Shown here: piece after piece, positions 8,366 through 56,984 of the stretch
Layout of the letters: every line of letters begins with the position of its first letter
Position numbering within the stretch: the stretch's first letter is position 1
Virus record (IMG/VR): IMGVR_UViG_3300045988_117710
Source: a virus
Reading direction: 5' to 3' (one strand)
DNA length: 64,000 nt
Program-made: the position numbers and the translations under genes
Notes under the pieces: model-generated
What the model was told of the DNA's origin: nothing
The model's input: only the letters and a program-made list of their open reading frames with translations
Database searches by the model: none

Positions 8366-8382
8366 TTAGTGAGGTGTATATT

Positions 8383-13104: not shown

Positions 13105-14499
13105 ATGTTAAAAACTAATCTTAACGAAAGTACTTTAATTAAAAAATATTCTCCAATTTTAGAATCAGTTGAAACTGGTTTAAAGAACTTAGGAAGAGAT
13201 GTTGCTGAATTCGATTCTTATAAGAAATATACTTTATCAAGAATCATGGAAAATGCTCAAAACTTAATTGAAACTTATTCAAAAAATAAGGCAATTATGG
13301 AAGCTGGTACTTTCCAAGTAAACAATGTTCCTGCTAAAAACCAATACTTAAAATTAACTGCTGCTGTTTATCCACAATTAGTAGCTGAAAATGTTGCTTC
13401 TGTTCAAGCAATGGAATATAAAGATGCAACTTGCTACTATTTAGGATATACTTATGGAGACAACAGAGGAGAAATCAAAGCTGGTGATTCTATAAGTACA
13501 GTATTCCAAGTTGGCCCAGATTCTGACAAATATGCTGCTTCTACAAGATATGCTTCTGAAGCTATCTCTCAAGAAGAATTAGTTGTTGAAGCTGGTGAAG
13601 CAAAACTTGCTTGGGGACCAGTTATTCCTGGATCAGTTGCTATCGATATTGATGGTACTGGTGCTACAATCGTAACTGATGACGGTTTAGGTGCATTATC
13701 TGACGGTGGTGCTATTGATTATGCTACTGGTACAATTACTGGTGCTACAATCGTTGAAGGTGCTAAAGCTGATTACAAACAAAATCTAGAATATGCCCCT
13801 GCTCAATTACCATCTGTTAGCTTAGATATTAAACCTTTATTCTTACATGCTAAACCTAAAGCATTAAGAACTGCTTATAGCTTAATTGGTGCATTCGATT
13901 TACAACAAACTCAAGGTTTAGATGCACAAAAATTATTAAGCAACTTAGCTACTGACGAATTAAGATGTGAAATCGATGGAGAAATCTTAAATGATATAGC
14001 TTCATTACCTGCTTCTGCTGCAGCTGGTGTAGTTACATGGAATATGGAAGTTCCATTTGGTATCAATAAGAAAGAACATTATGAAAGCTTATACTTCAAA
14101 ATTATTGAAGCTGGTTCAATCATCAAACAAGTTACTCGTAAATACGAAGGTAACAGAGTTATCGCTGGATTCAACGCTAACTATGTATTAAAAACTTTAG
14201 ATGAATTCAAAGCTGCTTCAACAAGAAATAGTGTAGGTCCTGTTGTTTCTGGTACTTTAGCTGGTGACTATACAGTTATCTATAACCCATATATTGGTGA
14301 AGATGATTTCACAGTATTATATCAAGGTCAAACATTTGACACAGCTTATATCTATGGTGTTTATATGCCTATCGTTTCTAGCCAATTCATTATGGATGAT
14401 ACTTTACTAGGACGTCAAGGATATGCTACAGAATACGCTAAATCATTTGTTAACCGTAAATATGTAGTTAAAGGTAAAATTACTCACAACGTTGCTTAA
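13105..14499 (+). CDS. putative major capsid (or major tail) protein
   Basis: 464 aa. Codon usage differs from neighbours (AAA/GAA/CAA/GCT-rich), consistent with high expression. Followed by a perfect 10-bp terminator. Confidence 0.4.
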   Translation: MLKTNLNESTLIKKYSPILESVETGLKNLGRDVAEFDSYKKYTLSRIMENAQNLIETYSKNKAIMEAGTFQVNNVPAKNQYLKLTAAVYPQLVAENVASVQAMEYKDATCYYLGYTYGDNRGEIKAGDSISTVFQVGPDSDKYAASTRYASEAISQEELVVEAGEAKLAWGPVIPGSVAIDIDGTGATIVTDDGLGALSDGGAIDYATGTITGATIVEGAKADYKQNLEYAPAQLPSVSLDIKPLFLHAKPKALRTAYSLIGAFDLQQTQGLDAQKLLSNLATDELRCEIDGEILNDIASLPASAAAGVVTWNMEVPFGINKKEHYESLYFKIIEAGSIIKQVTRKYEGNRVIAGFNANYVLKTLDEFKAASTRNSVGPVVSGTLAGDYTVIYNPYIGEDDFTVLYQGQTFDTAYIYGVYMPIVSSQFIMDDTLLGRQGYATEYAKSFVNRKYVVKGKITHNVA

Positions 14500-14612: not shown

Positions 14613-14673
14613 TTATAGTGTTAAGTAGTTATATATTTATATAGTTTAGATAGATTCTAAAGAGGAGGTGTTT

Positions 14674-21167: not shown

Positions 21168-21200
21168 AAGTCAACAATATTGTTGACTTTTTCTTTTGTT
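21168..21200 (+). terminator. intrinsic terminator overlapping a downstream -35
   Basis: 9-bp stem AAGTCAACA/TGTTGACTT plus a T-tract. Confidence 0.7.
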
Positions 21201-21211
21201 TATCGTATAAT
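21183..21211 (+). promoter_or_regulatory. consensus sigma-A-type promoter TTGACT-N17-TATAAT for the PARP-like gene
   Basis: -35 at 21183-21188 lies in the 3' arm of the terminator hairpin. -10 at 21206-21211, preceded by CG. Confidence 0.65.
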
Positions 21212-21236
21212 AGAGACAATGAAAGAGGTAATGTTT

Positions 21237-22496
21237 ATGAAATTTGCAAAGTTAATTATGATTACTGAAGACAATCACAATAAAGAGTATATAATGACTC
21301 AGATTGATTCTTCAACATTTAAAGCTGAATGGGGTAGGGTTGGTTCTAGTTATCAATCAACTACTTATTCTATGTATGAGTGGGATAGTAAGTACAAATC
21401 TAAAGTTAAGAAAGGTTATAAGGATATATCAAATCTAGTTGAGAAGGTTACTGTAGATGGTGATGTTAAGACTTTACCTTATGACTATATTACTAATAAG
21501 TCTGTCAAGGATATTCTTAATAGATTGTATCAATATACTGATTCTTACTTAAAGGAAAACTACTTAGTTAATACTGTAGATGTTTCCAAAGCACAAATTG
21601 ATGAAGCTTATAAGATTATTGATGAGCTTGAAAGATTAGCTTATTCAAGACATTTAGATGTTCGTGAAGTTAATAGAAATTTAATTAAGTTATTTGAAAC
21701 AATTCCAAGACGTATGTCTAGAGTTAAAGATTATTTATGTGATGATTCTATTACTAAAGATAAGGTTGATGAAAAGATTCGTGCTGAGTTAGATATGCTT
21801 AAGACTATGTCAGATGCTGTTGAGTTAAGACTTAAGAAACAAGCTGCAAGTAAGAAGACTACTAAGGTTGAGAAGTTATCTGAATCTGAACAAAAGGATA
21901 AATTACTTGCTGATCTTGGATTAGTTGTAGAGGATGTAACTGATGAGGATATTAAGTTTATTAAGAAACAATTAGGTGAAAGTTCACACTTATTTAAGAA
22001 AGCTTGGAAGATTACTAATCCTGCTACTGAAAAGAGATTTAATGATTTAGTTGCTACTGATGATTTCAAAGGTAAGGAAGTTAAATATTATTGGCATGGT
22101 TCTAGAAATCAAAACTGGTATAATATTATTCAAACAGGATTAACTGCTAATCCTAAGGGTGTTAAGATTACTGGTAAGATGTTTGGTTATGGTATCTATT
22201 TTGCACCTAAAGCAAAGAAGAGTGTTAACTATACTTCTCTTGAAGGTTCTTATTGGGCAAGTGGTAATGATAAGAGTGGGTTCATGGCTTTATTCGAAGT
22301 TGCTATGGGTAATGTGTTAGATGTTTATGATCATCATTACTGGTGTTCAAGAACTAACAAAGAAGAGATGTGGAAACATAACAAGTGTCATACTTTATAT
22401 GCTCACGAAGGTAGAGGTTTCTTATACAATGATGAAGTTATTGCATATGATGATGCACAAGTTAATATTAAATATATAGTGGAGTTGAGTAGATAA
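21237..22496 (+). CDS. PARP-like ADP-ribosyltransferase (WGR domain plus PARP catalytic domain)
   Basis: WGRVGS motif near the N-terminus. C-terminus YWHGSRNQNW..TGKMFGYGIYFAPKAKKSVNY...LYNDEVIAYDDAQVNIKYIVEL is near-collinear with the PARP1 catalytic signature including the H-Y-E residues. Real ATG at 21237 (AAAGAGG RBS); the track ORF runs upstream through the promoter. Confidence 0.75.
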   Translation: MKFAKLIMITEDNHNKEYIMTQIDSSTFKAEWGRVGSSYQSTTYSMYEWDSKYKSKVKKGYKDISNLVEKVTVDGDVKTLPYDYITNKSVKDILNRLYQYTDSYLKENYLVNTVDVSKAQIDEAYKIIDELERLAYSRHLDVREVNRNLIKLFETIPRRMSRVKDYLCDDSITKDKVDEKIRAELDMLKTMSDAVELRLKKQAASKKTTKVEKLSESEQKDKLLADLGLVVEDVTDEDIKFIKKQLGESSHLFKKAWKITNPATEKRFNDLVATDDFKGKEVKYYWHGSRNQNWYNIIQTGLTANPKGVKITGKMFGYGIYFAPKAKKSVNYTSLEGSYWASGNDKSGFMALFEVAMGNVLDVYDHHYWCSRTNKEEMWKHNKCHTLYAHEGRGFLYNDEVIAYDDAQVNIKYIVELSR

Positions 22497-24650: not shown

Positions 24651-27266
24651 ATGGCTGAGATTGCTTTTAGTGCTACTTATGGTGATGGTTCTCCATCTTA
24701 TAAGGTTTCATACTCTGCCAATGTTTCTATGGCTTCTAATCCTGATGAGGATTATCCTACTGTAGTGTGGGCTGCAGGTAAATTGAAGTTAAAGTGTACC
24801 AAGAAGGATGGTGTGTTGAATGCTGACCCTTATATGATGGTTACTTCTTTTGGTAGAAGTATGTCTATTTCGAATCAAGCAGATGGGTTGGTTAATCCTA
24901 TTGGAAAGACAAAGTGTTGGAAGACATCACATTCTGCTGAAACTACTGTTTCTAAAAAGAACTTTGTTTGTAATGCAAAACCTTTTTATATGAAACAAGG
25001 TTCTTTATTATTTCCTTCTTGTTGGGCTGATACGAAGTTCTGGCGTGAGAAGTTAGGAGTTCAAGTTGGTGGTGCAAGTAAGGCCACTACTAGAACTTCT
25101 GATAGTTTTGAGATTCCTCATTTATGTATGTTTTATAGATATGGTGGAAGTACTTATAGTAGTACTTTCCCTAATACTGATAGAACTTTATATATTTCTA
25201 GTCCTTGGATGTATAAGCTTCAAGGTTCTGGTACTTATGCCGGTTGTCCTGGTACAACCTATGGTACTAGAAAGTTCACATTCAAGATTCCTGTTACAAC
25301 GAATTGTGCTGGGTATTTAATAGTTCATTTCTATGGTATGGATGGTGGATATCAGAGTACAGGTCATTCTGTAAAGATTCAGAAACATATTTCTGCATTG
25401 ACTTCTGGGTTAGTTGAAGTTAGTGGTTCTGCTTATTTTAAGCAAGGTCCTTATAATGTTTATACAGAGTTTTCACCAGATACTAGTACTCGTTTATTCT
25501 CATCTACTCCTGGTACAGTAACTGCATCCAATCCGGGATTTAGTTCATCTAAAGGTAAGGTGTTCTTCTATTATCCCGGTTCACCTTATTCACCTGCAAA
25601 CTCTGCACCTTCATTTAGTGTTACTAACACTACTTCTCAACAAGTTAGTACAGGACAAACAAAGAATGTTTCATTGAGAATTACTCTTAATGATAATGGT
25701 GTTTCTCGTTATTGGCTTAATAAGATGGTTTACAATGTAGACTTATATTGGAATGATGGAACTAAGATTGGTTCTTATACTGTTAATGATTCTGATATGA
25801 ATAATATGAATTCTCACAATACTAATTTTAGTACAACTGTTCAGATTCGTTCAAGTATGAGACAGAAGGATGAATATGTTTATTGGGTTGTATCTGGTTA
25901 TTCAGTAGATACAGCTGGTAAGACAAGATGGGGTACAACAAGAACTTCTGGTAAGGTTAACTTGTTCTGGGCTTACAATGAACCTGCGAAGGTATCATTC
26001 AATAGTGCAAGAATTTCTTCTAGTTCTGGTCCAAACTTTTCTAATAATAAAGCTCAATTATATTATGGTGGAACAACTCTTAACTTTGTTTTACAAGCTA
26101 CAATTAATGCTTGGGGAGATAGACCTGGTACAAGAACTTATGAGTTCTCACTTAATAGAAATGGTTCAGTAGTTAAGTGGTATGGTAGAAATACAACTTC
26201 TGATACTGGTACTAAGTCACATACTTATTCTTATACTGTTCCAGATAACTGGGTTGGTTCATCTGCTAATTTCACTGTTTACAAGCGTTTAGGAGATACT
26301 GAGTATTTAGCTTCTGGTGATCCAAAGAATCCAGCATTGGGTACAAACCGTGCTTCTGGTGGTACTATTAGTTTCTATGAAGTTATTGGTGGTGTATCTG
26401 GTATGATAGATATCAAACCATCTATCTTAATGGTTTCAATTCCATGTTCAGTATCTGGTACAGGATATTATGATAAGCAATCTAGTCAGAAGGTTCGATA
26501 TTATGTTGAAGTTTTTGATATAGATGCTGATAAGGTTGTTAATCAATATGTTCTTGGTAATACATCAGGTGATATTACTAAAGAGATTGCGATAGATTTA
26601 AGTTCATCAGATTTTACGGTTTCTGAACCACATCTATATGAACTTAGACTTAAGGCGGATGTTACAGAGTTACTTGGAAATGTTCATACATATACTTTCT
26701 ATACAACAACTCGTCAATCATTCATGCCACCTCAATATACTTTAACTCAGACAACAGATGAGTTATTACCACCTGTTTCTGATACAAGTTTATTGATTAG
26801 ACAGAAGGCAACGAATACTTATACTTATAAAGTTGATTATGATTTAGCTCTATCTACAAGTATTCTTTATATAGAATATTATTTAGCTTCTAGTCCTAAT
26901 GTTAAGCGTACGAAGACTGTAAATATTCTTCCTGCAGGTTATGCTGGTGGTACTTTCTATGGTCAGTATACTTTCCCTAATCCAAAGGATTTAGATCCTA
27001 GTGATCCTTTGTATGATCCTGAAGGTTTTGCATTAGGTACTAAGGTAACAGCTTGGGTGTCTAGTACATGGAACTTACCTGGTTCTACAAGTGTTTACAG
27101 TAATAGTTCTGGTAAGGTTCAATATAATGTTACTCCTACTAGATACATTTACTTCTTAACTAGAGGTATTGAGAATGAGCAATGGTTAAATACTGTTCAT
27201 AGTGTTACTCCTACTAGAGCAGATAAGAAATCTAAGAAGATATTTGTGGAGACAGATATTAGTTAG
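24651..27266 (+). CDS. large S/T/G-rich virion structural protein
   Basis: GGGAGG RBS, 871 aa. Confidence 0.5.
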   Translation: MAEIAFSATYGDGSPSYKVSYSANVSMASNPDEDYPTVVWAAGKLKLKCTKKDGVLNADPYMMVTSFGRSMSISNQADGLVNPIGKTKCWKTSHSAETTVSKKNFVCNAKPFYMKQGSLLFPSCWADTKFWREKLGVQVGGASKATTRTSDSFEIPHLCMFYRYGGSTYSSTFPNTDRTLYISSPWMYKLQGSGTYAGCPGTTYGTRKFTFKIPVTTNCAGYLIVHFYGMDGGYQSTGHSVKIQKHISALTSGLVEVSGSAYFKQGPYNVYTEFSPDTSTRLFSSTPGTVTASNPGFSSSKGKVFFYYPGSPYSPANSAPSFSVTNTTSQQVSTGQTKNVSLRITLNDNGVSRYWLNKMVYNVDLYWNDGTKIGSYTVNDSDMNNMNSHNTNFSTTVQIRSSMRQKDEYVYWVVSGYSVDTAGKTRWGTTRTSGKVNLFWAYNEPAKVSFNSARISSSSGPNFSNNKAQLYYGGTTLNFVLQATINAWGDRPGTRTYEFSLNRNGSVVKWYGRNTTSDTGTKSHTYSYTVPDNWVGSSANFTVYKRLGDTEYLASGDPKNPALGTNRASGGTISFYEVIGGVSGMIDIKPSILMVSIPCSVSGTGYYDKQSSQKVRYYVEVFDIDADKVVNQYVLGNTSGDITKEIAIDLSSSDFTVSEPHLYELRLKADVTELLGNVHTYTFYTTTRQSFMPPQYTLTQTTDELLPPVSDTSLLIRQKATNTYTYKVDYDLALSTSILYIEYYLASSPNVKRTKTVNILPAGYAGGTFYGQYTFPNPKDLDPSDPLYDPEGFALGTKVTAWVSSTWNLPGSTSVYSNSSGKVQYNVTPTRYIYFLTRGIENEQWLNTVHSVTPTRADKKSKKIFVETDIS

Positions 27267-32858: not shown

Positions 32859-34829
32859 ATGTTTTTCACAATTAATGACATTATCACTGGGAAGAAATAT
32901 AATGTAAATGTTATGTGGATTACATCTATGAAGAATGGTGATGATTCACAGTCTGCTCCTAACTTTGAGTTATTGTTGTATCAAGGTGACGGAGGACGTC
33001 CTTTGGTAGAATCATATGCTTCAGCTGCTGAGAGAAAGGAACGTAGAGATACTATTGTTGAAGCAGGTTCATTTTTCGAACTTAATAGTATTCAATACAA
33101 TCTTGTTTGGGTTCAGTCTGTTGCAAAGGTAAATGCTGGTGATCCATTATATGATGGTAACTTAGCACAGAAACCTGCTGTTTCTATTACATTTGCTAAT
33201 GGTAGAACTATTTATGGTCAGTTTGATACTGAACAAGCAAGAGATGAGTTCTATGACTTATTAATGGAGTCAATGCTTAGTGGTGGTTTAGTTCAAAGAG
33301 ATACTTTTGATGATTTTCCTAAGAAGGGGAATCCTGGATGTGTTTATCTAGCGAAGGATACAGGTATTACTTACTATTGGGATAAGGTTCTTAAGCAGTA
33401 TGTAACAACTGGTTCTGGTGGTCGTAAAGGTGTCTATGAGGCAATTAATGATTTACCTACTACTCTTGGTCAAGTGGTTACAATTAATAAGTCAGATTTA
33501 AGAGAATTGGTTAAGCCAACAGTTGATTTCATGGAGACTTCTGATGTAATTGATGATGAAGGTACTCGTGGTGTTATTATTGCTAATAATGATACTACTG
33601 TAGATATATGTATTATACCAGACAAAACTATTGATTCATTTAAGCAAGTCGCTACTGAAGCTGATTTACCAGAAACTGGGAAGACTAACATATTATTATA
33701 TGTTCAAGATATAGATGAGTTTAGAATTTGGGATGATAATGTACCTGGTTGGGTAGATCCATTCCATCCTATTAGATTTGAGAGTGATATTACTCCAGAG
33801 ACTGCTAGAACTAATACTCTTTATATTGATGAGACAGAAGCAAGATATACATCTGACAATGTTGAGTGGAAGTATATTACTTCTGAAGCAAGACCTTATC
33901 AGAAGGGTACTACTTACTATAAGGGAATGTTAGTCTATAGAGACAATATTTTAACTAAGGCAACAGTTACATTTAAGTCTAATGCAACAGTTAGTAAGAA
34001 TACTGCAGAAGCATTTACTTATGACTTAGATAAAGGAAATCTAGAAGTAATAATTGATGCTTACACTAGAACTAATGTAATGTATGATTTGTCTGACCAA
34101 CTTGATGAAGATACTCAAGAGTTTAATTTACCTGCAGGAGTAACTCCAGAACGTTCTGTTCTAGTATTCTATGCTGGTCAGTTATTAATAGAGGGTGTCA
34201 ACTACATTATCGATTACACTAATCAGAAGTTAAGATTATTGTTCGAAGAGGATCCAGATTCATTAGAAGATAGACATCTGACAATGATTATTGGTAACAT
34301 TGAAGCACCGGCTGGTGTTAGAACTGTTACTGGTATTATTCCTGGATTGGTTGATAATACAGATCCATTTAATCCTGTCATTGGTCATGATGATACTAAG
34401 ATTGATAAGAGTATTGCTAATCGTCTTGTATCTAATACTGATGTTACAGAGGTAGATGGTGCTGTGGATATGACTTTCACTTATGCAGATACTGATGATG
34501 GTTCTATTTCTGCTAAGAAGGTTATATTCAAAACACCAAATGATAATATTAAGTTTAAGGTTAATAATGTAACACCTCAAATCAGAGAGATTGAAATTTC
34601 TGCATTTGGTGCTGCAGAGGTAACTGAACGAGCTATTACATTTGATGGTACTTCTAGGGAGTTTGATTTACCTATTAATGTTGATACTACTAGACCTTTA
34701 GTAGTTATGATTAATGGGTTAGCATTAACTTCTGGTGAAGATTACGACTATGTTATAGTCGGAAATAAGATTAAGTTTACATATGTGTTTGAGGTGGATT
34801 CAAATGCTGTAATAGTAAACTTTAAATAG
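32859..34829 (+). CDS. virion structural protein
   Basis: AGGAGG RBS, 656 aa. Confidence 0.5.
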   Translation: MFFTINDIITGKKYNVNVMWITSMKNGDDSQSAPNFELLLYQGDGGRPLVESYASAAERKERRDTIVEAGSFFELNSIQYNLVWVQSVAKVNAGDPLYDGNLAQKPAVSITFANGRTIYGQFDTEQARDEFYDLLMESMLSGGLVQRDTFDDFPKKGNPGCVYLAKDTGITYYWDKVLKQYVTTGSGGRKGVYEAINDLPTTLGQVVTINKSDLRELVKPTVDFMETSDVIDDEGTRGVIIANNDTTVDICIIPDKTIDSFKQVATEADLPETGKTNILLYVQDIDEFRIWDDNVPGWVDPFHPIRFESDITPETARTNTLYIDETEARYTSDNVEWKYITSEARPYQKGTTYYKGMLVYRDNILTKATVTFKSNATVSKNTAEAFTYDLDKGNLEVIIDAYTRTNVMYDLSDQLDEDTQEFNLPAGVTPERSVLVFYAGQLLIEGVNYIIDYTNQKLRLLFEEDPDSLEDRHLTMIIGNIEAPAGVRTVTGIIPGLVDNTDPFNPVIGHDDTKIDKSIANRLVSNTDVTEVDGAVDMTFTYADTDDGSISAKKVIFKTPNDNIKFKVNNVTPQIREIEISAFGAAEVTERAITFDGTSREFDLPINVDTTRPLVVMINGLALTSGEDYDYVIVGNKIKFTYVFEVDSNAVIVNFK

Positions 34830-36266: not shown

Positions 36267-38741
36267 ATGCAAAAATTAAATAGACAACAACTTCCTGTAG
36301 ATGTATTAAATGAATTATATGGTAAGGCAAACCAAGTTTACGTAGATGAGAAGTTCAATGAATTCTCATCTGCGGTAAACTCAACATCATCTGACTCAGG
36401 TGACTATGCTATAATGCCTTTTAATAATGAAGCTCCTGTTGTATATACAATGCAAAACCGTAACATAGATAATGTTGAAATAGACGGTTCAGTAGGTTAT
36501 AAAGATAATCTACCTGGTGGTTATGTATTTACAGGTGCTGCTGATTCTTACAGAAATAAAACATTTAACCGTATCAAGGTATTCGTTAAAGTACCTGGAT
36601 GGGTTAGAATAGGTATTGTAAGAGGTACAGGTTATGGAATGGGTAAAGACCAAGGTGATGGTGTTGCAAGAGGTATATTCAAAGCCAATGCTAGATATGA
36701 TGCAACAGATGTGTATCCTTCATCATTGGTTAAGGGTGTTGAGGATTCAACAGCTGATGACCAAGCTCATGCAACATTAAAGAAATGGTTAGTAGTTCAA
36801 TATGCTGCTACTGTAGGTGTTCATGAGTACGATTTTGAAGATGAAATTATAACTTCACCATTTGAATACATTTATGAAGAGAGTAGATCAGGAGTTGCTG
36901 GGTTTGTTTATAATAAATCTGGAGCTGCTGTTACAACAGGTAATACAACAATTCCTAATGGGGTTGCTAACACAGGTTTAACATATCCAACAGCTGCAAT
37001 TTCAGCTACAAACCTTTGTGATGGTCAATATCCAATTTCTGATAATATGTTAGATACTTCTGCAAGATTAGCTTACTTTAATGAAAAATCAGCCAGAGGT
37101 GGTGGATATCATAGAAGTTGGACAGGTATTAAATATAACCAAACAGACAAAACAATAGATATATCTCAACATAGAGGTGACTTAAATATAGGTTTATATA
37201 GAAGAGGTGTTAGTGGTACTAAATATTTACAACCTGTTATTGAAAATGCCTTAACTAGAAATATATCAATAAGTGAAACTAATACTGGTCATATAAATGG
37301 ATATGGTCCTAAATATGAAGACCAACAATTATTAGCACAAACTGGAGCTAGAATATATGCTATTGAAGTAATCATAGCAGAACCTGGTGACTTATCATTC
37401 TTTGTATTTAGTTCTAATGATCCAGCTACTTGTAGAATATTAAAACACTTTACATTGAGAACAAGAGGTATAGGTAAGCAACTTATCCATTTACCTGAAG
37501 ATGTTATTTTACAAGAAGGAAACTGGTGTGGTGTAGAAGGTATTACACAAGCTGTTACTTTTAATAGACCTATAGCAAGTGAAGTATTCTCAAGTGGTAC
37601 TACATTAGCACAAGGTTATGCAGATACAGCAAAATTTGTTTATCGTGATCCATCTTCAGTAAAGAATTGGACATGTAAAGGTGATGATCCAACAGCAATT
37701 CAAGATTTAATACCATTTAGTTCAGCTACAGGTACTAGAAGTTCTGGATTCCAATTTTGGAAAGGTGTTCAATATATACCGGGAGCAAATGCAGGTGAAG
37801 GTTATGTTGATTTCACAAATGCATCTATAGTAGAAGACAATACAAACTACTTAAATATATGTCTAGTTGTAAGAGATGAACCAATATCTAAATTAGAAGA
37901 TTTATGGTGTTCTATTACAGGTGACTCAATATCTACTTATACAGGTGTTGTTTCAAAAGCAGATGATTACGGTATGACTTATCTTAATGCAGCTGGTAAT
38001 AACTCATGCTTTTATCCAAAGAATGCTAGTGGATTTACAAACTGTATTGATGCAACTTGGTGGGGAGCTTTAATTAAACAAACAAGAATGAGATTATTAA
38101 GAAACGATGCATGGTCAGGTTCAAGAGTATCTGGAACTGATTCAGATACATCATCAACAGCTTGTGCTTCTGATATAAGATCTGTATTGTTACGTAACAT
38201 TTCATTCCCAACATATGAACCAGTAAAAGAATCAGGTAAATATACACACCCATTTGGTACACCTGATATTGTATTTACTTGTATAGGTACAAATGACTTA
38301 GCAGGTGGGGTAACACCAGGATCTTATTCAAATGAACAACCTGCTGATATTTCAACAATATTAAGTGCATTTGAAAGAATGGTTGGTAAGCACAAAGCAA
38401 ACTATCCACAATCAATATTAGTATACTTTGTTCTACCAAGAGGTTCTAGTGTTTATCCATATACAAATGCAACAACTGGATTCTCAATAGCTCAAATGGC
38501 TGCTTCATTTGAATATATTGCAAAAGCAATGGGAGTATACTTTGTACCACTTTCATATTTCAATGCTTTAAATGCTAATGAAGCCAGTGCAACATTTGTA
38601 TGGACTCCAAATAGTGCTACACTTCATAAAAATAGTACAACATTTGATGGAGCAGTAACAACTGATAAATTACACCCATCAGCTACAGGACACCAAATCA
38701 TAGCAAACGCTTTACAAAGATTCTGTGAACAAATAGTTTAA
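36267..38741 (+). CDS. tail-associated protein with a C-terminal SGNH/GDSL esterase domain
   Basis: Block I ITGDSISTY, block III GTNDL and block V DKLHPSATGH in the C-terminal ~300 aa. Confidence 0.55.
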   Translation: MQKLNRQQLPVDVLNELYGKANQVYVDEKFNEFSSAVNSTSSDSGDYAIMPFNNEAPVVYTMQNRNIDNVEIDGSVGYKDNLPGGYVFTGAADSYRNKTFNRIKVFVKVPGWVRIGIVRGTGYGMGKDQGDGVARGIFKANARYDATDVYPSSLVKGVEDSTADDQAHATLKKWLVVQYAATVGVHEYDFEDEIITSPFEYIYEESRSGVAGFVYNKSGAAVTTGNTTIPNGVANTGLTYPTAAISATNLCDGQYPISDNMLDTSARLAYFNEKSARGGGYHRSWTGIKYNQTDKTIDISQHRGDLNIGLYRRGVSGTKYLQPVIENALTRNISISETNTGHINGYGPKYEDQQLLAQTGARIYAIEVIIAEPGDLSFFVFSSNDPATCRILKHFTLRTRGIGKQLIHLPEDVILQEGNWCGVEGITQAVTFNRPIASEVFSSGTTLAQGYADTAKFVYRDPSSVKNWTCKGDDPTAIQDLIPFSSATGTRSSGFQFWKGVQYIPGANAGEGYVDFTNASIVEDNTNYLNICLVVRDEPISKLEDLWCSITGDSISTYTGVVSKADDYGMTYLNAAGNNSCFYPKNASGFTNCIDATWWGALIKQTRMRLLRNDAWSGSRVSGTDSDTSSTACASDIRSVLLRNISFPTYEPVKESGKYTHPFGTPDIVFTCIGTNDLAGGVTPGSYSNEQPADISTILSAFERMVGKHKANYPQSILVYFVLPRGSSVYPYTNATTGFSIAQMAASFEYIAKAMGVYFVPLSYFNALNANEASATFVWTPNSATLHKNSTTFDGAVTTDKLHPSATGHQIIANALQRFCEQIV

Positions 38742-45448: not shown

Positions 45449-45458
45449 GGTGGTTTTT

Positions 45459-46634
45459 ATGAAAGAGTTTGTTATTAAGAATGAACTTATGATGTTCATT
45501 GAGGAGCATGAGGATTGGAAGGTTCTATTAGCTTCTGATCCTTATAATCTAATTATTAAGGAAGATGAGGATTTTCCTAATGTTTATTTATTCAAGTATA
45601 ATATGTTAGAGTCTGATATGTATCAGAAGATTTCCCAAGAAGCGAGAGGTTTAATAGTTGAGGTTTCTGAAGTAGCTGGTAGACGTGTGACTAAGATGTT
45701 AGCACATTCTTTTGATAAGTTCTTTAACTATACTGAACCTCAAGGTGTTATGGTTCTAGAGAATTTCAATTGGGATAATTATAGTTTCCAAGAGAAGAGA
45801 GATGGATCTCTTATGAGATTGTGGTTCTATAAAGATAAGTGGGTTGTATCTAGTTCTGGTACTATTGATGCTCATAAAGCCAATATTCAGATTCCTAGTG
45901 TAGGTTATAATTCATTTGGTGATATGTTTGATGCTATTATTAAGAAGTATGATGTTGATTTTGATTCTTTAGATAAGGGGATAACTTATTCATTTGAGAT
46001 GACTTCACCAGACAATAAGATAGTAGTTGATTATGACTCTGATGAGCTTACTCTTATTGGTATGAGAGTTAACAAGTTGAATATGGAGCTTGATCCTATA
46101 TCTTTTAATCCATTTAAGGATATTAAGGTTGCTGAGAGATTTGAGTTTACTTCTCTTGATGATGCTTTATCTATTATTAATAATAGAACGAATTTTGAGG
46201 GCTTGGTTTTGGTTGATTCTAGTTTCAATCGTGTTAAGATTAAGACTGAGGAGTATTTAGCTTTAGCAAAGATGTCTGACATGGCAAGTTCTGATAGAGG
46301 TATCTTAAGGATGATTCTAGCTGGTACTATAGATGATGTTGCAAATCGATTACCACATTTACAACCACGAATTGATATCGTTAAGGGTTTTGTGGAATCA
46401 GAAATTACTAATATTAAGCAGTTGATTAGTACTGTTGATTTTACTCAAGATAGAAAGACAATTGCTCTATCAGTTAAGGATAGTCCTTATGCTAGGTTTG
46501 TATTTCCATTGATTTCTAATCCTGATCAGGATGTTATTGGAGCTTATTTTGTGTCTGATAACTTGGAGAAGATTTACAAATCTTATAAGGAAAGGTTCAA
46601 TTTAAGTGAAGAAACTGAAGAAGAAGTCATATAA
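45459..46634 (+). CDS. RNA ligase, T4 Rnl1 (RnlA)-like
   Basis: Nucleotidyltransferase motif I KRDGSL (T4 Rnl1 has KEDGSL). GAGGTGG RBS. Confidence 0.6.
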   Translation: MKEFVIKNELMMFIEEHEDWKVLLASDPYNLIIKEDEDFPNVYLFKYNMLESDMYQKISQEARGLIVEVSEVAGRRVTKMLAHSFDKFFNYTEPQGVMVLENFNWDNYSFQEKRDGSLMRLWFYKDKWVVSSSGTIDAHKANIQIPSVGYNSFGDMFDAIIKKYDVDFDSLDKGITYSFEMTSPDNKIVVDYDSDELTLIGMRVNKLNMELDPISFNPFKDIKVAERFEFTSLDDALSIINNRTNFEGLVLVDSSFNRVKIKTEEYLALAKMSDMASSDRGILRMILAGTIDDVANRLPHLQPRIDIVKGFVESEITNIKQLISTVDFTQDRKTIALSVKDSPYARFVFPLISNPDQDVIGAYFVSDNLEKIYKSYKERFNLSEETEEEVI

Positions 46635-47678: not shown

Positions 47679-47877
47679 AAGTTATACGAAGGATTTATTA
47701 AGGGAGCTTGGTGCTAAGGGATATATGATTGTCCCTTGCACACAAGAAGAGCAAGAGGAGATATTTACAACTTTGAGGTCTAATGGTAGATGTGCAAGAG
47801 CTGGTTATATCTATAATAAGGAACATGAGAAGATATTCTTTGTTCTAACAAAGAAGAGAAATAAGGTTGGTGCTTAG
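47668..47877 (+). CDS. hypothetical protein
   Basis: GGGAGGA RBS, ATG at 47668. Confidence 0.45.
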   Translation: MDVRSYTKDLLRELGAKGYMIVPCTQEEQEEIFTTLRSNGRCARAGYIYNKEHEKIFFVLTKKRNKVGA

Positions 47878-47878
47878 T

Positions 47879-48370
47879 ATGATTAAGATTAAGTATGGTG
47901 ATTTGTTAGATGCAACGGAAGATGTAATCTGTCATCAATGTAATGTTCAAGGTATCTTTGGTGGAGGTTTAGCTGCTCAGATTGGTAAGAGATGGCCACA
48001 ATGTGCTTTCTCTACTGAAGGGTTCGCTGAAGTATTTGGTTCTGGTGTTCTAGGTATGGTTCATTATTGGAAGACTCCTGATGGTAGAACTGTTTGTAAT
48101 TGTTTTACTCAGAGGGAGGATTTCACTACTGATTATTGTTTTCTAGAGAAAGCTTTTACAGAGATTCTTACAATTTGTAAGGAGAGTAATCTTTCAGTAG
48201 CAGTACCATTTCAGTATGGTTGTGGTATAGCTCATGGTGATTGGAATCAGGTATTAGATATCTTTACTAGGTTATCTACTGATATTGGTGTTGATATTAA
48301 TGTTTATTATTTGAAGGGAAGTGTTCAAGATGCCTCTAATAGTGAAGGACAAATATTTGGAGAAGAATAG
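47879..48370 (+). CDS. macro-domain (ADP-ribose binding / hydrolase) protein
   Basis: YGDLLDATEDVICHQCNVQGIFGGGLAAQI matches the macro-domain core (GDIT..DAIVNAAN..GGGV). Confidence 0.6.
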   Translation: MIKIKYGDLLDATEDVICHQCNVQGIFGGGLAAQIGKRWPQCAFSTEGFAEVFGSGVLGMVHYWKTPDGRTVCNCFTQREDFTTDYCFLEKAFTEILTICKESNLSVAVPFQYGCGIAHGDWNQVLDIFTRLSTDIGVDINVYYLKGSVQDASNSEGQIFGEE

Positions 48371-48575
48371 TTGGGTTATAGGTGATTTACTAACTGCTAG
48401 AGAAATGATTGATGTTATTGTTAGAGATTTAGAATCTAATGGTAGAACTCATGTAGATTATGTTCTAGAGAAGTTAGAAAGAGCAGAGAATATTTTAAAT
48501 AATATTAATGGGTTATGTTTAAGAAATTCTAATAAAGGAGTGAAGAAAGATGAAGACACAAGTTCAAGTAATTAG
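48330..48575 (+). CDS. hypothetical protein
   Basis: GAAGGGA RBS then ATG at 48330. Confidence 0.4.
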   Translation: MPLIVKDKYLEKNSWVIGDLLTAREMIDVIVRDLESNGRTHVDYVLEKLERAENILNNINGLCLRNSNKGVKKDEDTSSSN

Positions 48576-48978
48576 GACCTATGATAGAAGTGTTTTTGAA
48601 AAACAACTATCTGAAGCTTATGCAAGTAAGGATGTAGTTAATGTTAATACTCATACCGAGTCTTATTTCAATGGAAGGGATTTAGTTATCTATTATATAG
48701 CAATTGTGTTCTATAAGGAGAATGTTGGTGAGATTGCTTTAGTGAATAGGTCTAAGTCAGATATTCTAGTTAGTAATTTAGGATTAAATTCTAGAGCTTA
48801 TGGTGTGTTGGTTAGACATAATAGACATATGACTCTTGGTGATCTTGTTGATTTAATAAGATCTGGTAGTATTTATAAGATGAAGAATATTGGTGGTACT
48901 ACTGTAACTCAAATTAAGGAGAGATTAGTTGAGTTAGGTTTAGTTAAGGAGGAGAGTTCAAATGGCAAAGATAGATGA
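48550..48978 (+). CDS. protein with an RNA polymerase alpha-subunit C-terminal-domain-like (HhH) fold
   Basis: LGLNSRAYGVL..GDLVDLIRSGSIYKMKNIGGTTVTQIKERLVELGL is collinear with the E. coli alpha-CTD ([45 protein letters not shown]). Confidence 0.5.
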   Translation: MKTQVQVIRTYDRSVFEKQLSEAYASKDVVNVNTHTESYFNGRDLVIYYIAIVFYKENVGEIALVNRSKSDILVSNLGLNSRAYGVLVRHNRHMTLGDLVDLIRSGSIYKMKNIGGTTVTQIKERLVELGLVKEESSNGKDR

Positions 48979-49159: not shown

Positions 49160-49243
49160 ACAATGACAATTCTTTAGTTGTCATTTGTATGTCACGAGTA
49201 ACCCCATACTCAGTGAATAGCACTCTATACGAGTGCTTTTTTC
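49160..49243 (+). promoter_or_regulatory. structured 5' leader with a possible attenuator upstream of 49267
   Basis: Hairpin AATGACAA/TTGTCATT at 49162-49185, then the terminator hairpin at 49219-49243, both lying between the promoter and the RBS. Confidence 0.35.
49219..49243 (+). terminator. terminator or attenuator hairpin inside the leader of the phosphoesterase-ligase gene
   Basis: AGCACTC/GAGTGCT stem plus TTTTTT, 25 nt before the ATG at 49267. Confidence 0.6.
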
Positions 49244-49266
49244 GTATTTAAATTAAGGAGGTACCT

Positions 49267-50934
49267 ATGGTTAATGTTTTCTTTATTAGTGATTTACATC
49301 TTAATCATGGCAATATTATTGATTATTGTGATCGTCAGTTTAATAGTATTCAGGAGATGAATGATACTATTGTTAGGAATTGGAATAGTGTTGTAGGTCC
49401 AGATGATATAGTTTATTTTCTAGGTGATTTTGCTTTAGGTAGAGATGTAGATAAGGTTTATGAGGAGTATTCGAAGCTTCTGAATGGCACTATCTATTTC
49501 TTAAGAGGAAATCATGATAAGTCTAGATCTGTTGTATCTAGGTATTTTAATTTAATCGATACAGGTACGACTGTTTCTTATAATGATTCTCATTTCATTC
49601 TTTCCCATCATCCTTTATATGATTCAGAGATTCCTAAGGGATATGTTAATCTTCATGGTCATATTCACAATAACAAGTTGAGTAGGGTTTATGATTCTGG
49701 ATGTCATTTTAATGTTTCTGCTGATGTTACTGATTTCACACCATATTTCGTAAAGAATATTATAGATGATATTTCCTCTGGTTCTTTAGTTCCAAAGAGA
49801 ACTGGGGTTGATAGAGTTAGGAAGGATGATGGTAGTATGAGAAAGTTAGCTACAGTGCAAACTATTTTAAATGTTGAACCTATACCTGATGCTGATGCAA
49901 TTGAGGTTGTTACAGTTAAGGGTTGGAAGGTTGTTGTAAAGAAGGGTGAGTATCAAGTTGGTGATAAGGTAGTTTATTTCGAAATTGATTCACTTATTCC
50001 AAGAAGTTCAATAACAGAGTTTTTGATGGAAGATGAGTATATGTTGTCTGCTAGATTAAGAACTAGAAAATTAAGAGGTCAAGTATCTCAAGGTTTAGTT
50101 ATTTCTTTAGAAGATTCTCTTGTTATGGCTGAAGAGTTAAATGGTGCTGTTGAGTTATTTGATACTGATGATGGTACAGATGTTTCTGATTTACTTCATG
50201 TTGAGAAGTATGAACCACCTGTTACTTATGGTAACGAGGGTAGATGTGTTGCTTGGCCATTTACATTGACTAAAACTGATGAAGAGAGAATTCAAAATAT
50301 TCCTGAAGTTATTGATAAGTTGATCGAGAATGGAACTCATTTATGTATTTCAGTTAAGTTAGATGGTACTTCTATGACTGTAGTACATCAACCAGATGGT
50401 ATTCATGTAGCTGGTAGAAACAATGATTTTGATAAGACAGATGATTTTGCTTTCAATAATAAGTATTGGTCTACAGCTCGAAGATATGGTGTTACAGATG
50501 CTTTAGAAGAAGCCCATATAAATAATCCAGACAAATACTTTGCTGTTCAAGGTGAGTTAGTTGGTCCTGGTATTCAAGGTAATAAGATGAATTTATCAGA
50601 TTTGAATTATTATATCTTTAACTTATTTGTTTCTGAAGATGAATGCAGAACTTGGAAGAAGTTAGGTTATGAAGAATTAGTTCAGTTCTGTATTGATTAT
50701 GATCTTACTCATGTTCCTTATATTTATTCAGATTTCGAATTGAAGGCACATGGTTTAGTAGATGTTGATAGTATTCTTAAGTTTGCGGAAGGTACTTATA
50801 GAGATAATGCCGAGGGTTATTTCCCAAATGCTAAAGCCAATCAACAAAGAGAGGGGTTAGTGTTTAGAACTCTTGATCATCAATTCTCTTTTAAGGTTGT
50901 TAATAATATCTTCTTACTTAAGGGAGGAGAATAA
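49267..50934 (+). CDS. metallophosphoesterase fused to a nucleotidyltransferase-family (RNA/DNA) ligase domain
   Basis: N-terminal DLHLNHG, GDF and GNHD. C-terminal motif I KLDGTS. AAGGAGG RBS. Confidence 0.6.
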   Translation: MVNVFFISDLHLNHGNIIDYCDRQFNSIQEMNDTIVRNWNSVVGPDDIVYFLGDFALGRDVDKVYEEYSKLLNGTIYFLRGNHDKSRSVVSRYFNLIDTGTTVSYNDSHFILSHHPLYDSEIPKGYVNLHGHIHNNKLSRVYDSGCHFNVSADVTDFTPYFVKNIIDDISSGSLVPKRTGVDRVRKDDGSMRKLATVQTILNVEPIPDADAIEVVTVKGWKVVVKKGEYQVGDKVVYFEIDSLIPRSSITEFLMEDEYMLSARLRTRKLRGQVSQGLVISLEDSLVMAEELNGAVELFDTDDGTDVSDLLHVEKYEPPVTYGNEGRCVAWPFTLTKTDEERIQNIPEVIDKLIENGTHLCISVKLDGTSMTVVHQPDGIHVAGRNNDFDKTDDFAFNNKYWSTARRYGVTDALEEAHINNPDKYFAVQGELVGPGIQGNKMNLSDLNYYIFNLFVSEDECRTWKKLGYEELVQFCIDYDLTHVPYIYSDFELKAHGLVDVDSILKFAEGTYRDNAEGYFPNAKANQQREGLVFRTLDHQFSFKVVNNIFLLKGGE

Positions 50935-52279: not shown

Positions 52280-52528
52280 ATGTATTCTCATAATTATAAA
52301 GGTTTACCTTATAAGCAAAGTGTTAAGCGATTTGAGAAGGATTATCGTATTAGATATTGTTTGTATGGTAAGTATTCCAAATGGAGAACTGCTTCTGGGA
52401 AGAAGATTCGAGTTAAGGATTTAGATTATCACCATTTAATTAATATTGTTAATTATTTTGGGAATACAAAGATTCGAAATGATTATCCATTTGTTTGGTA
52501 TAGATATGTGAAAGAGGTGGTATTGTGA
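52280..52528 (+). CDS. small hypothetical protein
   Basis: Consensus promoter at 52233-52261. AGAGGTGAA RBS then ATG at 52280. Confidence 0.5.
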   Translation: MYSHNYKGLPYKQSVKRFEKDYRIRYCLYGKYSKWRTASGKKIRVKDLDYHHLINIVNYFGNTKIRNDYPFVWYRYVKEVVL

Positions 52529-53565
52529 AGAAGTTCACAGCAACAGTTTTAATGGGTTATCCTGGTTCTGGTAAGACTAGAGCAAGTTCTTATAAGCATT
52601 TAAGAACTAATGATGCTTTATATCTATCTTCTGATGATTTAAGAGTAGAGATGTTTGGTTTCAGAGATCAGGAGCATAATAAGGAGTTATTCGAAGAGTT
52701 ATATAAGAGAGCAATCAATTATTCTGATAAGGGAGATGTTTTAATTGATTCTACAGCTCTTACTAGAAAAGATAGATTGAGGGTTATTGCAAAGCTTGGT
52801 AAGTACTTCAATATGAGATTAGTAGTAGTTGTCAGACCTATTTGGGAGATTGTGGAGGAGAATCAAATCAGAAAGGTTTCTAAACCTGAAGAGTATATTC
52901 CTGAACCAATCTTTAAACAGATTCTTGGTAGATTTCAATTACCTACTTATGATGAGGGTTGGGATGAGATTAGTTTTTGTTTCAATTCTTCTATTGAAGA
53001 ACATAATGATCCTAATCTATTATTAAAATGTTTTTATGATTTAGATAAGGTTGAAGATATTGCACATGATAATCCACATCATCCAGAGTCAATCAAGGAA
53101 CATGTTAATTATGTTTTAGGTAAGGTTAAGGAAGAGACATCAAGTTTTGTATTAGAGTCTATTGCTTATTATCATGATTTAGGTAAATTTTATGTTATTC
53201 AGTATAATGAAGAGAAAGGATATTCTCAATGTATTGGTCATGCAGCTGTTTCAGCTTATATCTATTTGACAGATTTCTTGATTAGGGCTGTTTTAGATTC
53301 TATTGAGAAAGATGACTTTACTAATCCTTTTAGTAATTTAGAGTTTCTTTTAATTTATTATGGAGTGTTCTATCATGATTATCCTTATTCATTTACTGAT
53401 TTTGAAGATATGGTTAGTTCTTTAAGTAAACCTAGTAAACCATTGATTCATTTATTTAAAAATCTTAATGATGGTTTAGTTGGTATTTCTATGAGAGAGT
53501 TTACAAGAATGTTAATAGATTTTAATTGTTATGATAGAATGAGGGAAGGTGATTCAGATGAATGA
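52525..53565 (+). CDS. bifunctional P-loop polynucleotide-kinase-like domain plus HD phosphohydrolase domain
   Basis: Walker A VLMGYPGSGKT. C-terminal H..HD motif (HHPESIKEH ... YYHDLGK). Confidence 0.55.
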   Translation: MKKFTATVLMGYPGSGKTRASSYKHLRTNDALYLSSDDLRVEMFGFRDQEHNKELFEELYKRAINYSDKGDVLIDSTALTRKDRLRVIAKLGKYFNMRLVVVVRPIWEIVEENQIRKVSKPEEYIPEPIFKQILGRFQLPTYDEGWDEISFCFNSSIEEHNDPNLLLKCFYDLDKVEDIAHDNPHHPESIKEHVNYVLGKVKEETSSFVLESIAYYHDLGKFYVIQYNEEKGYSQCIGHAAVSAYIYLTDFLIRAVLDSIEKDDFTNPFSNLEFLLIYYGVFYHDYPYSFTDFEDMVSSLSKPSKPLIHLFKNLNDGLVGISMREFTRMLIDFNCYDRMREGDSDE

Positions 53566-55004: not shown

Positions 55005-56984
55005 ATGTTAGATTATAATAGATTAGATATGGCAACCCTAAGATTGTTTAAGGGGTTATATGTTGATGAACCAAATACTGGTTCTAATATTTCAAGAGAT
55101 GAGGTAGTTAAGTTAGCTCTTAATGGGTTAATCTTTAATACTACTGTTCATTCTGATACAGCTGTTGATATAGCAATTAAACTTTATGGAAATAATCCAT
55201 ATAAGTTATCAAATACTTTTCATAAGGATTGGACTACTGTGGAGAATATTACTCCTGAAGAACATTATTTACAAACTTTTATTAGTTATATAACTACTTA
55301 TGGATATGATTCTTTAGGAATTCCTTATGATGAAAATCATTACATTATTCCTGATGAGATTATTCCTATTCCAGAGAATGTAGTTCCATTTAATTTTACT
55401 GTTATTAGTTCATTGAATTATGTAACATTATTAAATAGAGTTCATGCATTAGTTTCATCTGGTGTAGCTTTATCTCAACAACAAGTTGATGATGTATTGG
55501 TTATTATTAACTATTTACAGTTACCTATTGACTTCTCTATGGTTAAGAATAAAGAAGTTCGTTGTGTTCTTTGGTTAGGTATTACTGGTGATAAACCTTA
55601 TATCAATGTTGATGAATTCTTAAGAGTTTTAGTTTATACTACTCTACATCAAACATTATTAGTTCGTTCTTATAGAGATTATAAGGCAATTAGATTTGCA
55701 ATGAATTATTCTGATGAGACTAGAAGAAAAGTTGCTAAACTATTAGAAACTTATCAAAGACAATTTGGTATTGAGAATTTAGCAGGTTCTTTCTTACGTA
55801 ATAAGATGTTATTCCTAGCTTTCAAATGTGATGAGACTAAGGTTCTTATTAACAAGTTAAGAAGAGTTGCTGATAAGTATCATAGACCAATTAGTAATGC
55901 TAAATTAACTATGGATGATATCCTTCGTGCTGCGGAGAATAAGAATATATTCCAATTAGTTAAGTATTATAACTATTGTTTATCTATAATTAATCCTACT
56001 GAAGATAGAGTTTATGCTATTAGAAATGGTAAGAATTATTTAGCTAGTAATCCTAATTACAATAATTCTTCAGTTGCTAGAGATTTAGTTGTTCCACATT
56101 ATATGGATTTATCTAGAACTATTGTTACTAAGTTAGAAGAGTTACTTTCTAATTTGAAAGATAAGACATTTATTATACCTGAATATGTTGATTATAAAGT
56201 TCCATCATCTCTTAAGAGATTAGCATCTGGTGTTCCAGAAGGAACTATGATTAAGTTTAAGGAAGGAGATCCATTTGTTGTTGGTGTTTACTGGACAAAT
56301 CTTGAAGGTGACGATAATGAGAAGAACAGAGTGGATTTAGATCTTCATGCTAATTCAGTTAATAAGAGTATTGGATGGAATACTTCATTCAGAAATGACG
56401 AAGTTCTTTATTCTGGTGATATAGTAGATGCACCTATTAGTAAGGGTGGTGCTTCTGAAGCATTGATGTTTAGAAAAGTTACTGATCCTTATTTAGTTAC
56501 TTTAAATTCTTATAATCAAGCTGGTGTTATTTCTTATAAGTTTATCTTTGATGTTGAGGATGGGTTCAGAGCTTCTCATTCAACAGGATGGGATAGAAGA
56601 ACTCCAAATGGTTATATCTTTACACCAAATGCTAGAGTTCTTAATGCGAAGATTAAGAAAGATGGTTCTCAAAATACTTTAGGTTTAGTTATGAATGATA
56701 GATTCTATTTTATGAATTCATCATTATTCTCTGGTCATGTTACTGTTAAAAGTGATTTACTTAAGAGAGCTATTAAGTATTATGAAGAATCTCAAGCAAG
56801 AGAGTTAAGATTAAGAAGTTTACTAACATTAGTTGGTGCTAGAGTGTTTGATTCTTTTGAAGATTTAAAAGCTTGGGAAGATTTCCATGAAGTTGTTGTG
56901 GATACTAATACTGTAGTTGATTTATCTTTAGAAGCAATTACTGAAGATACATTTGTTCAGTTATTTACAATAGATGCTGAGTAG
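55005..56984 (+). CDS. hypothetical protein (659 aa)
   Basis: AAAGGTGG RBS. No recognisable motifs. Confidence 0.55.
   Translation: MLDYNRLDMATLRLFKGLYVDEPNTGSNISRDEVVKLALNGLIFNTTVHSDTAVDIAIKLYGNNPYKLSNTFHKDWTTVENITPEEHYLQTFISYITTYGYDSLGIPYDENHYIIPDEIIPIPENVVPFNFTVISSLNYVTLLNRVHALVSSGVALSQQQVDDVLVIINYLQLPIDFSMVKNKEVRCVLWLGITGDKPYINVDEFLRVLVYTTLHQTLLVRSYRDYKAIRFAMNYSDETRRKVAKLLETYQRQFGIENLAGSFLRNKMLFLAFKCDETKVLINKLRRVADKYHRPISNAKLTMDDILRAAENKNIFQLVKYYNYCLSIINPTEDRVYAIRNGKNYLASNPNYNNSSVARDLVVPHYMDLSRTIVTKLEELLSNLKDKTFIIPEYVDYKVPSSLKRLASGVPEGTMIKFKEGDPFVVGVYWTNLEGDDNEKNRVDLDLHANSVNKSIGWNTSFRNDEVLYSGDIVDAPISKGGASEALMFRKVTDPYLVTLNSYNQAGVISYKFIFDVEDGFRASHSTGWDRRTPNGYIFTPNARVLNAKIKKDGSQNTLGLVMNDRFYFMNSSLFSGHVTVKSDLLKRAIKYYEESQARELRLRSLLTLVGARVFDSFEDLKAWEDFHEVVVDTNTVVDLSLEAITEDTFVQLFTIDAE

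Follow-up and report, generated by a model that had tools for sequence, protein, structure and literature searches.

A phage family of small proteins that joins an RNA polymerase alpha-CTD-type domain to a Cse60/CprV-like domain

Upstream promoter DNA and many activators dock on bacterial RNA polymerase mainly via the C-terminal domain of its alpha subunit (alpha-CTD). A small ORF of a viral genome fragment, whose product ends in a segment resembling this domain, raises the questions whether a phage encodes an alpha-CTD outside of the polymerase, to what it is attached, and which function it may have.

The gene and its operon

The window, i.e., the whole stretch of 64,000 nucleotides analysed here, has a G+C content of 32% and carries nearly all of its long ORFs on the plus strand. 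The gene under study and the putative signals around it are located as follows.

48550..48978, plus strand: coding sequence of a 142-aa two-domain protein, stop codon included (ORF list)
48535..48540, plus strand: Shine-Dalgarno-like AAGGAG, 9 nt 5' of the ATG (direct sequence reading)
49219..49247, plus strand: terminator-like hairpin with T-run, past the next small ORF (consensus scan)

The ORF overlaps both of its neighbours, a preceding 84-codon ORF and a following 57-codon ORF, and is therefore part of a tightly packed phage operon. The hairpin probably closes this operon; the evidence is weak, with one site found in the consensus terminator scan and one expected by chance. No enrichment over shuffled sequence was observed in the promoter scan.

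The ORF is a real gene. A 95%-identical protein (P0001) is encoded on 14 metagenomic contigs of up to 185 kb in the same gene order, and homologues at 30-43% identity are present in further phage contigs. Compared to 97%-identical relatives, the codon differences amount to just 4 synonymous and 7 non-synonymous ones, for which reason dN/dS is uninformative. Paralogues of either domain do not occur elsewhere within the window.

Two domains on a short linker

The protein is composed of two domains, a linker, and a tail.

48550..48720, plus strand: N-terminal Cse60/CprV-like domain, aa 1-57 (AlphaFold, alignment A4, Foldseek, hhalign)
48721..48759, plus strand: linker, aa 58-70, variable in length and sequence across the family (alignment A2)
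48760..48942, plus strand: alpha-CTD-type domain, aa 71-131 (family sequence searches, residue mapping, Foldseek)
48943..48975, plus strand: charged C-terminal tail, aa 132-142, of low model confidence

An earlier note on this DNA had described a stand-alone protein with an alpha-CTD-like C-terminus and had named a search with the PF03118 profile as the check. At E<=10, PF03118 (RNA_pol_A_CTD) is the sole Pfam match of the window protein (aa 67-126, E=1.4e-4, 22.0 bits), five rpoA models of NCBIfam match solely via their C-terminal ends (best 1.2e-5), and all 12 matches of the PDB sequence search at E<=10 are RpoA. The Pfam score falls 1.8 bits short of the gathering cut-off of 23.8 bits, which speaks for a generic helix-hairpin-helix (HhH) likeness, or a chance ORF, without alpha-CTD specificity. 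Due to this shortfall of the single sequence, membership in PF03118 was established via the family instead. The profile is matched by 11 out of 14 family members having the C-domain (best 1.8e-15), two of the family members carrying the PF03118 label in precomputed tables. A family-only profile, built from the C-domains of 11 relatives with RpoA sequences left out, placed 51 distinct RpoA sequences of the PDB ahead of the first other protein; its top match is the B. subtilis alpha-CTD (3e-14) and its first non-RpoA match a Pol X HhH (E=0.021). Furthermore, the window protein matches none of the generic HhH families of Pfam (HHH, HHH_5, etc.) at E<=10, its predicted helices sit where those of the alpha-CTD sit, and the protein is kept across divergent phage contigs. 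The generic or chance explanation thus has a negligible probability, and the C-domain is a member of the alpha-CTD family specifically, as the earlier note had held; an assignment to a generic HhH family, by which the note would have been refuted, did not occur.

In the AlphaFold model of the full protein (pLDDT 86.9), the C-domain helices span residues 81-90, 96-105, 107-110, and 116-128 and coincide, under the residue mapping given below, with the four alpha-CTD helices (E. coli residues 264-273, 278-287, 288-291, and 297-309). The best 29 PDB matches in Foldseek come from RNA polymerase complexes and are chains of alpha size (280-323 aa), with full-length TMq values of 0.3-0.4 that fit the superposition of one domain out of two. 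A resemblance to the alpha-NTD, as might be read from Foldseek alignments with RpoA that extend over 120-148 columns, was rejected on the basis of the rmsd (17-28 Å) and of these TMq values. Outside of aa 66-139, neither Pfam nor NCBIfam gave any match, including the alpha-NTD domains RNA_pol_L and RNA_pol_A_bac, by which RpoA dimerises and assembles beta and beta'. Since there is no alpha-NTD and the N-domain is a 57-aa Cse60-like fold, the protein is not an RpoA. The tail is unconserved across the family, and its residues 137-142 have a pLDDT below 50.

In the earlier note, the N-terminal 80 aa were considered unrelated. This has to be refined, as residues 1-57 form a separate, conserved Cse60-like domain, followed by the linker (residues 58-70). 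The alpha-CTD is fused to this domain by the short linker, and the term “stand-alone” had to be given up. The N-domain is even the best-conserved portion of the two-domain family. AlphaFold predicts a beta(3-10)-alpha(13-26)-beta(28-41)-beta(44-56) fold with a pLDDT of 91.8 for the domain alone, and alignment A4 shows conservation of D12, Y24, T34-H35-T36-E37, and I50-A51-I52..Y55, with the family motifs DTHTE and YYIAIVFY.

Foldseek against viral models (BFVD) retrieved many phage proteins of approximately 60 aa, several of which are named “Sporulation protein Cse60” (TM 0.77-0.87, rmsd 1.2-2.0 Å). In hhalign, alignment A4 of the N-domain matched the Cse60 alignment A8 end to end over 59 columns (78% probability, E 1.8e-5). 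A8 contains phage Cse60-like genes found by a consensus probe together with database relatives; 11 out of its 12 members match PF10957 (Spore_Cse60). An earlier comparison with a narrow Cse60 alignment had given only 11%, and the higher value was reached once diverse Streptococcus and Lactobacillus phage sequences had joined the template. None of 31 N-domain sequences matches PF10957 in hmmscan, even at E<=10, and searches with the N-domain in Pfam, PHROGs, and PDB sequences returned nothing meaningful. The N-domain is a remote, superfamily-level relative of Cse60 beyond the reach of the Pfam model, and not a member of PF10957. In case of Foldseek against the PDB, only weak and generic beta-alpha-beta-beta matches were obtained (L23, dodecin, S10, CutA, and Alba, all with E>=0.04); no relationship to dodecin is claimed. 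A profile search with the N-domain yielded 26 proteins, mostly stand-alone versions of 53-84 aa from phage-like contigs that reach up to 185 kb, and none of these has a Pfam label or a name.

B. subtilis Cse60 (YteV) was renamed CprV in a 2026 paper, which reports an Alba-like fold, confident multimer predictions, and self-interaction in two-hybrid assays that is abolished by the beta1 mutation V4A (PMC13627676). The alternating hydrophobic beta1 residues are retained in the window protein (V5 and V7), and by analogy to the CprV prototype the N-domain probably self-associates. Within the linker, the pLDDT falls to 79-85, and the pTM of the model is 0.57; both indicate that the orientation of the two domains to each other is not fixed.

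Cse60-like genes also occur in temperate Lactobacillus and Streptococcus phages (Lj928, JNU_P7, CHPC663), located one to two genes upstream of a regulator gene that is annotated as transcriptional activator, ArpU-family regulator, or DNA-binding protein.

L011 289-510: Cse60-like gene of a temperate phage
L014 286-486: Cse60-like gene of a temperate phage
L012 295-501: Cse60-like gene of a temperate phage

This position next to regulators hints that phage Cse60-like proteins possibly act together with transcription factors.

Residue conservation, genome context, and possible functions

The E. coli alpha-CTD reference sequence was confirmed to be identical to PDB 1LB2_B. In a local pairwise alignment with it, the C-domain of the window protein shows 19/56 identities. 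Residues matching E. coli are L77, L79, R82, L87, H93, K110, N113, G115, T120, I122-K123, L126, and G130-L131, and G97-D98-L99-V100 corresponds to G279-D280-L281-V282. The residue-for-residue agreement stated previously thus holds for the listed residues, except for the lysine of the “G.K” element (K298, here T117), and the alignment takes two one-residue insertions, M94 and G106. Taking R265, N268, N294, G296, K298, S299, and E302 as the E. coli 265 determinant, three DNA-binding residues are identical, namely R82 (48793-48795) for R265, N113 (48886-48888) for N294, and G115 (48892-48894) for G296. N268 and K298 are lost, being replaced by G85 and T117, respectively, and T118 and Q121 are conservative replacements of S299 and E302. 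The patches by which the E. coli domain contacts activators and sigma, i.e., the acidic 261 determinant (D258/D259/E261, here S75/N76/G78) and the 287 determinant (T285/E286/V287/E288, here I103/R104/S105/S107), are not retained, which carries limited weight due to the fact that these patches are lineage-specific.

Alignment A6 sets the window protein beside six of its short-linker relatives, the alpha-CTDs of two RpoA sequences, and two further alpha-CTD proteins; N113 and G115 (columns N46 and G48) do not vary in it, and R82 (R15) hardly does. In the family-only alignment A7, G115 is invariant and N113 nearly invariant; the arginine equivalent to R265 is absent in four family members (P0002, P0004, P0007, and P0009). 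The C-half of the window protein has a net charge of +3 and a pI of 9.5, most C-domains across the family being neutral or acidic. Identity of the family C-domains to the alpha-CTD of B. subtilis is 34-46%, compared to 27-35% for that of E. coli; between the window protein and RpoA alpha-CTDs it amounts to 29-34%. Y84 of the window protein aligns with B. subtilis Y263, and this position is aromatic in most short-linker members. B. subtilis Y263 is required for Spx binding (rpoA(Y263C) allele; structure 1Z3E).

With the equivalents of R265, N294, and G296 retained, the sequence is compatible with DNA docking, which the loss of N268 and K298 makes less certain. Considering the retention of R82, N113, and G115 together with the basic C-half, docking on the minor groove of A/T-rich DNA appears as the likeliest activity. 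Competition for UP elements or activators, recruitment of the host polymerase, and a decoy for ADP-ribosylation had been suggested as functions in the earlier note. The reading favoured by the data is a multimer that offers several alpha-CTD heads to A/T-rich DNA or to partners of the alpha-CTD. We tentatively propose, at somewhat less than even chances, that the protein is a small accessory “mini-alpha”, which would present alpha-CTD heads multimerically to A/T-rich DNA and thereby modulate host transcription. T4-like phages rely on the host RNA polymerase. In detail, the N-domain (aa 1-57) would self-associate, and the flexible linker would tether the alpha-CTD-type HhH domain (aa 71-131), so that the multimer displays at least two heads. 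Via the equivalents of R265/N294/G296, these heads would dock in the minor groove of UP-element-like DNA rich in A/T, with multimerisation supplying avidity. The docked heads might compete with the host RNA polymerase for such sites, occlude them, or mark them, by which transcription by this enzyme would be modulated. The formation of multimers, the docking on DNA, and the influence on transcription are all inferred. A role of valency is suggested by the modular occurrence of both domains, since the N-domain also exists as a stand-alone protein, some members (P0002 and P0004) carry two alpha-CTD copies each, and unrelated proteins contain 2-6 PF03118 domains in tandem. Arguments against a mini-alpha are the loss of N268 and K298, the four members without the R265 equivalent, the neutral or acidic character of most C-domains, the lack of a conserved neighbour gene tied to transcription, and the site of action of CprV (see below for both).

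A bolder variant of this proposal would make the protein the first case of a virus imitating the alpha-CTD. The mini-alpha would out-compete the host alpha-CTDs for UP elements, e.g., those of rRNA promoters, or for activators depending on the alpha-CTD, and shut off a promoter class. We regard this variant as unlikely. If true, a class of host promoters would be silenced with the polymerase itself left untouched, a third route besides those of T4 Alt/ModA and G1 gp67.

Alternatively, the head might serve as a protein-partner decoy that, instead of binding DNA, titrates host or phage proteins docking on the alpha-CTD of the polymerase and thereby uncouples them from the enzyme; candidates are Spx-type regulators, class I activators, sigma region 4, and NusA. 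The closeness of the family to the alpha-CTD surface of Bacillota RpoA, the putative Spx contact at Y84, and the partial loss of the DNA-contact set are in agreement with this explanation. It has to cope with the lack of conservation of the E. coli 261 and 287 determinants and with the DNA-contact positions R82, N113, and G115 being the best-conserved residues family-wide; moreover, partner surfaces are lineage-specific. A decoy function therefore seems rather doubtful to us, and docking of a multimeric mini-alpha on DNA remains the preferred reading.

The following genes of the window bear on the function or on the nature of the phage.

13105..14499, plus strand: major head protein, T4 gp23-like
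21180..22496, plus strand: PARP-like protein, 438 aa, downstream of the head gene cluster (PF00644, E=1.1e-21)
45450..46634, plus strand: T4 Rnl1-like RNA ligase of an RNA-repair set
47867..48370, plus strand: macro-domain protein, 167 aa (phrog_335, E 3e-27)
49267..50934, plus strand: metallophosphoesterase + OB + RNA ligase fusion of the RNA-repair set, 555 aa
51720..52220: NrdG-like radical-SAM activase
52525..53565, plus strand: AAA_33/KTI12-type kinase of the RNA-repair set

The PARP-like protein aligns with human PARP1 in both the helical and the catalytic domain (E=1.5e-15), and its H-Y-E motifs are intact (WHGSR, GIYFA, and YNDE). The macro-domain protein, missed by Pfam alone, matches macrodomain and ADP-ribose-1''-phosphate phosphatase chains of the PDB (E 7.5e-6) and is encoded two genes upstream of the alpha-CTD-like gene. 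Thus ADP-ribosylation of R82 by a phage or host transferase, either regulating the protein or soaking up the modifier, comes into consideration. PARP-type enzymes with an H-Y-E triad differ from T4 Alt/ModA, which are of the R-S-E type and specific for arginine. Macro and PARP genes are lacking in the surroundings of other family members, the arginine is missing in some members, and the adjacent RNA-repair genes explain the macro domain equally easily. The PARP-like and macro genes in the window are only circumstantial evidence, and even though R82 aligns with R265, the residue ADP-ribosylated by T4 (PMC3694059), we consider this explanation very improbable.

The neighbourhood also bears on an architectural role, in which the multimeric HhH protein would be a general factor of DNA architecture or metabolism that binds phage or host DNA non-specifically, in the service of replication, recombination, repair, nucleoid remodelling, or protection, and has no part in transcription. 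Genes of repair and nucleotide metabolism (two RNA ligases, macro domain, NrdG, and kinase) surround the locus, and HhH domains generally contact the DNA backbone without sequence specificity. The resemblance of the N-domain fold to Alba, a feature described for CprV as well (PMC13627676), is also in line with this role, and Foldseek weakly matched an Alba chain. The role is at odds with the specific alpha-CTD likeness of the C-domain, which is unlike the HhH of repair enzymes (see the Pol X match above), and with the mostly neutral or acidic N-domains of the family, which argue against nucleic-acid binding by this domain. We assign it a minor probability.

Recognition of the family required an exhaustive search, as a word-indexed homologue search gave a single 95% relative. 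The exhaustive search of 1.84 billion representatives retrieved 41 proteins, two-domain relatives among them. The two-domain family has approximately 14 members, which are solely encoded on metagenomic contigs of large phages, and in an IMG/VR scan it was found at one locus. When the gene was compared by BLAST with 50,697 phage records, both as DNA and as protein, no match was obtained. Searches of cultured phages with two other family members returned no two-domain relative, only matches at the level of the C-domain in unannotated records, possibly host rpoA.

The more distant members have different surroundings in other large phages; one is situated next to a SprT-like gene and 7-deazaguanine genes, others on contigs with T4-type portal and AbrB-like genes. 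A neighbouring gene conserved across the subfamilies was not found, and therefore none links the family to transcription. In one phage, a full 150-aa two-domain member (L015 1927-2379) follows the SprT-like gene beside GTP cyclohydrolase I, PTPS, and QueC genes. The equivalent position of a 185-kb phage harbours just a 45-aa N-domain remnant (L009 5001-5138), which suggests that members of the family have undergone domain loss or truncation. On the contig of the 185-kb phage, the GTP cyclohydrolase I gene (L009 5739-7703, minus strand) is split by an intein, as judged from PT-HINT, Intein_splicing, and faint LAGLIDADG matches in a precomputed Pfam list.

The closest cultured relatives of the head protein belong to the myoviruses Listeria LIS04 (35% identity), Bacillus SP-15 and HSE3, and Streptococcus GXN1. 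These data suggest a large (approximately 185 kb) T4-like myovirus, otherwise uncultured. Its host is probably a member of the Bacillota because of the capsid relatives, the higher identity to the B. subtilis alpha-CTD, and the low G+C content. Further ORFs of the window include two of 1396 and 1378 aa without Pfam or PHROG match (4069..8259 and 14668..18804, plus strand) and three of 871, 656, and 659 aa without Pfam match (24651..27266, 32859..34829, and 55005..56984, respectively). A DNA methyltransferase-like protein is encoded at 8374..9552 (plus strand; phrog_56, E 2e-21) and an 824-aa protein at 36267..38741 (plus strand), the orthologue of which in L001 has GDSL-lipase Pfam domains.

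Comparison with known systems

Use of the alpha-CTD outside of RpoA is already known at the database level, and what is new is the combination of this known domain with a Cse60-like module into a phage architecture that lacks annotation. Literature searches on phage alpha-CTD-like proteins gave nothing relevant. The family defined here escapes the current Pfam and PHROG models. If the mini-alpha proposal is correct, the phage would possess its own copy of the alpha-CTD, probably a multimeric one, as a simple means of competitive inhibition or of re-targeting.

With the alpha-CTD of RpoA (PF03118; 1Z3E_B and 1LB2_B) the phage protein shares the four-helix non-canonical HhH, the residues equivalent to R265/N294/G296, the GDLV motif, and the position of the domain on a flexible linker behind an N-domain, which is oligomerising in RpoA and presumably so in the phage protein. 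In contrast to RpoA, it is phage-encoded and lacks the alpha-NTD, so that it cannot be a polymerase subunit; it has G85 and T117 in place of the canonical residues, two one-residue insertions, and neither a 261 nor a 287 determinant.

Similar to Cse60/CprV (PF10957), the N-domain has approximately 57 residues in a beta-alpha-beta-beta order, aligns in register from end to end, and has stand-alone counterparts of approximately 60 aa in Bacillota phages. Unlike Cse60/CprV, the phage family has no PF10957 match, possesses DTHTE and YYIAIVFY motifs of its own, and is fused to an alpha-CTD; furthermore, CprV acts at the sporulation septal pore and not in transcription. The poorly understood Cse60/CprV fold would gain a second context as a portable oligomerisation module in phages.

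Other non-RpoA proteins with PF03118 (P0013, P0014, P0016-18, and P0023) likewise place the alpha-CTD outside of the polymerase, usually in several copies. They achieve valency by tandem repeats, whereas the phage family would use a separate oligomerisation domain. The large proteins P0014, P0016, P0017, and P0038 contain 2-6 PF03118 domains in tandem, some of them with a sigma-70 region 4 or a PspA/IM30 segment. We know of no experimentally characterised non-RpoA protein with multiple alpha-CTDs, nor did the literature searched contain one.

The contact of the alpha-CTD to UP elements is already attacked by phages, namely by G1 gp67 and by ADP-ribosylation of R265 in case of T4 (PMC3694059). 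The proposed mini-alpha would target the same step in hosts whose genomes are rich in A/T, namely docking of the alpha-CTD on upstream DNA of this composition (PMC3694059). The means would differ, as gp67 acts by binding to sigma and Alt/ModA by covalent modification of R265, and neither is related in sequence or fold to the protein described here, which would bring an alpha-CTD of its own.
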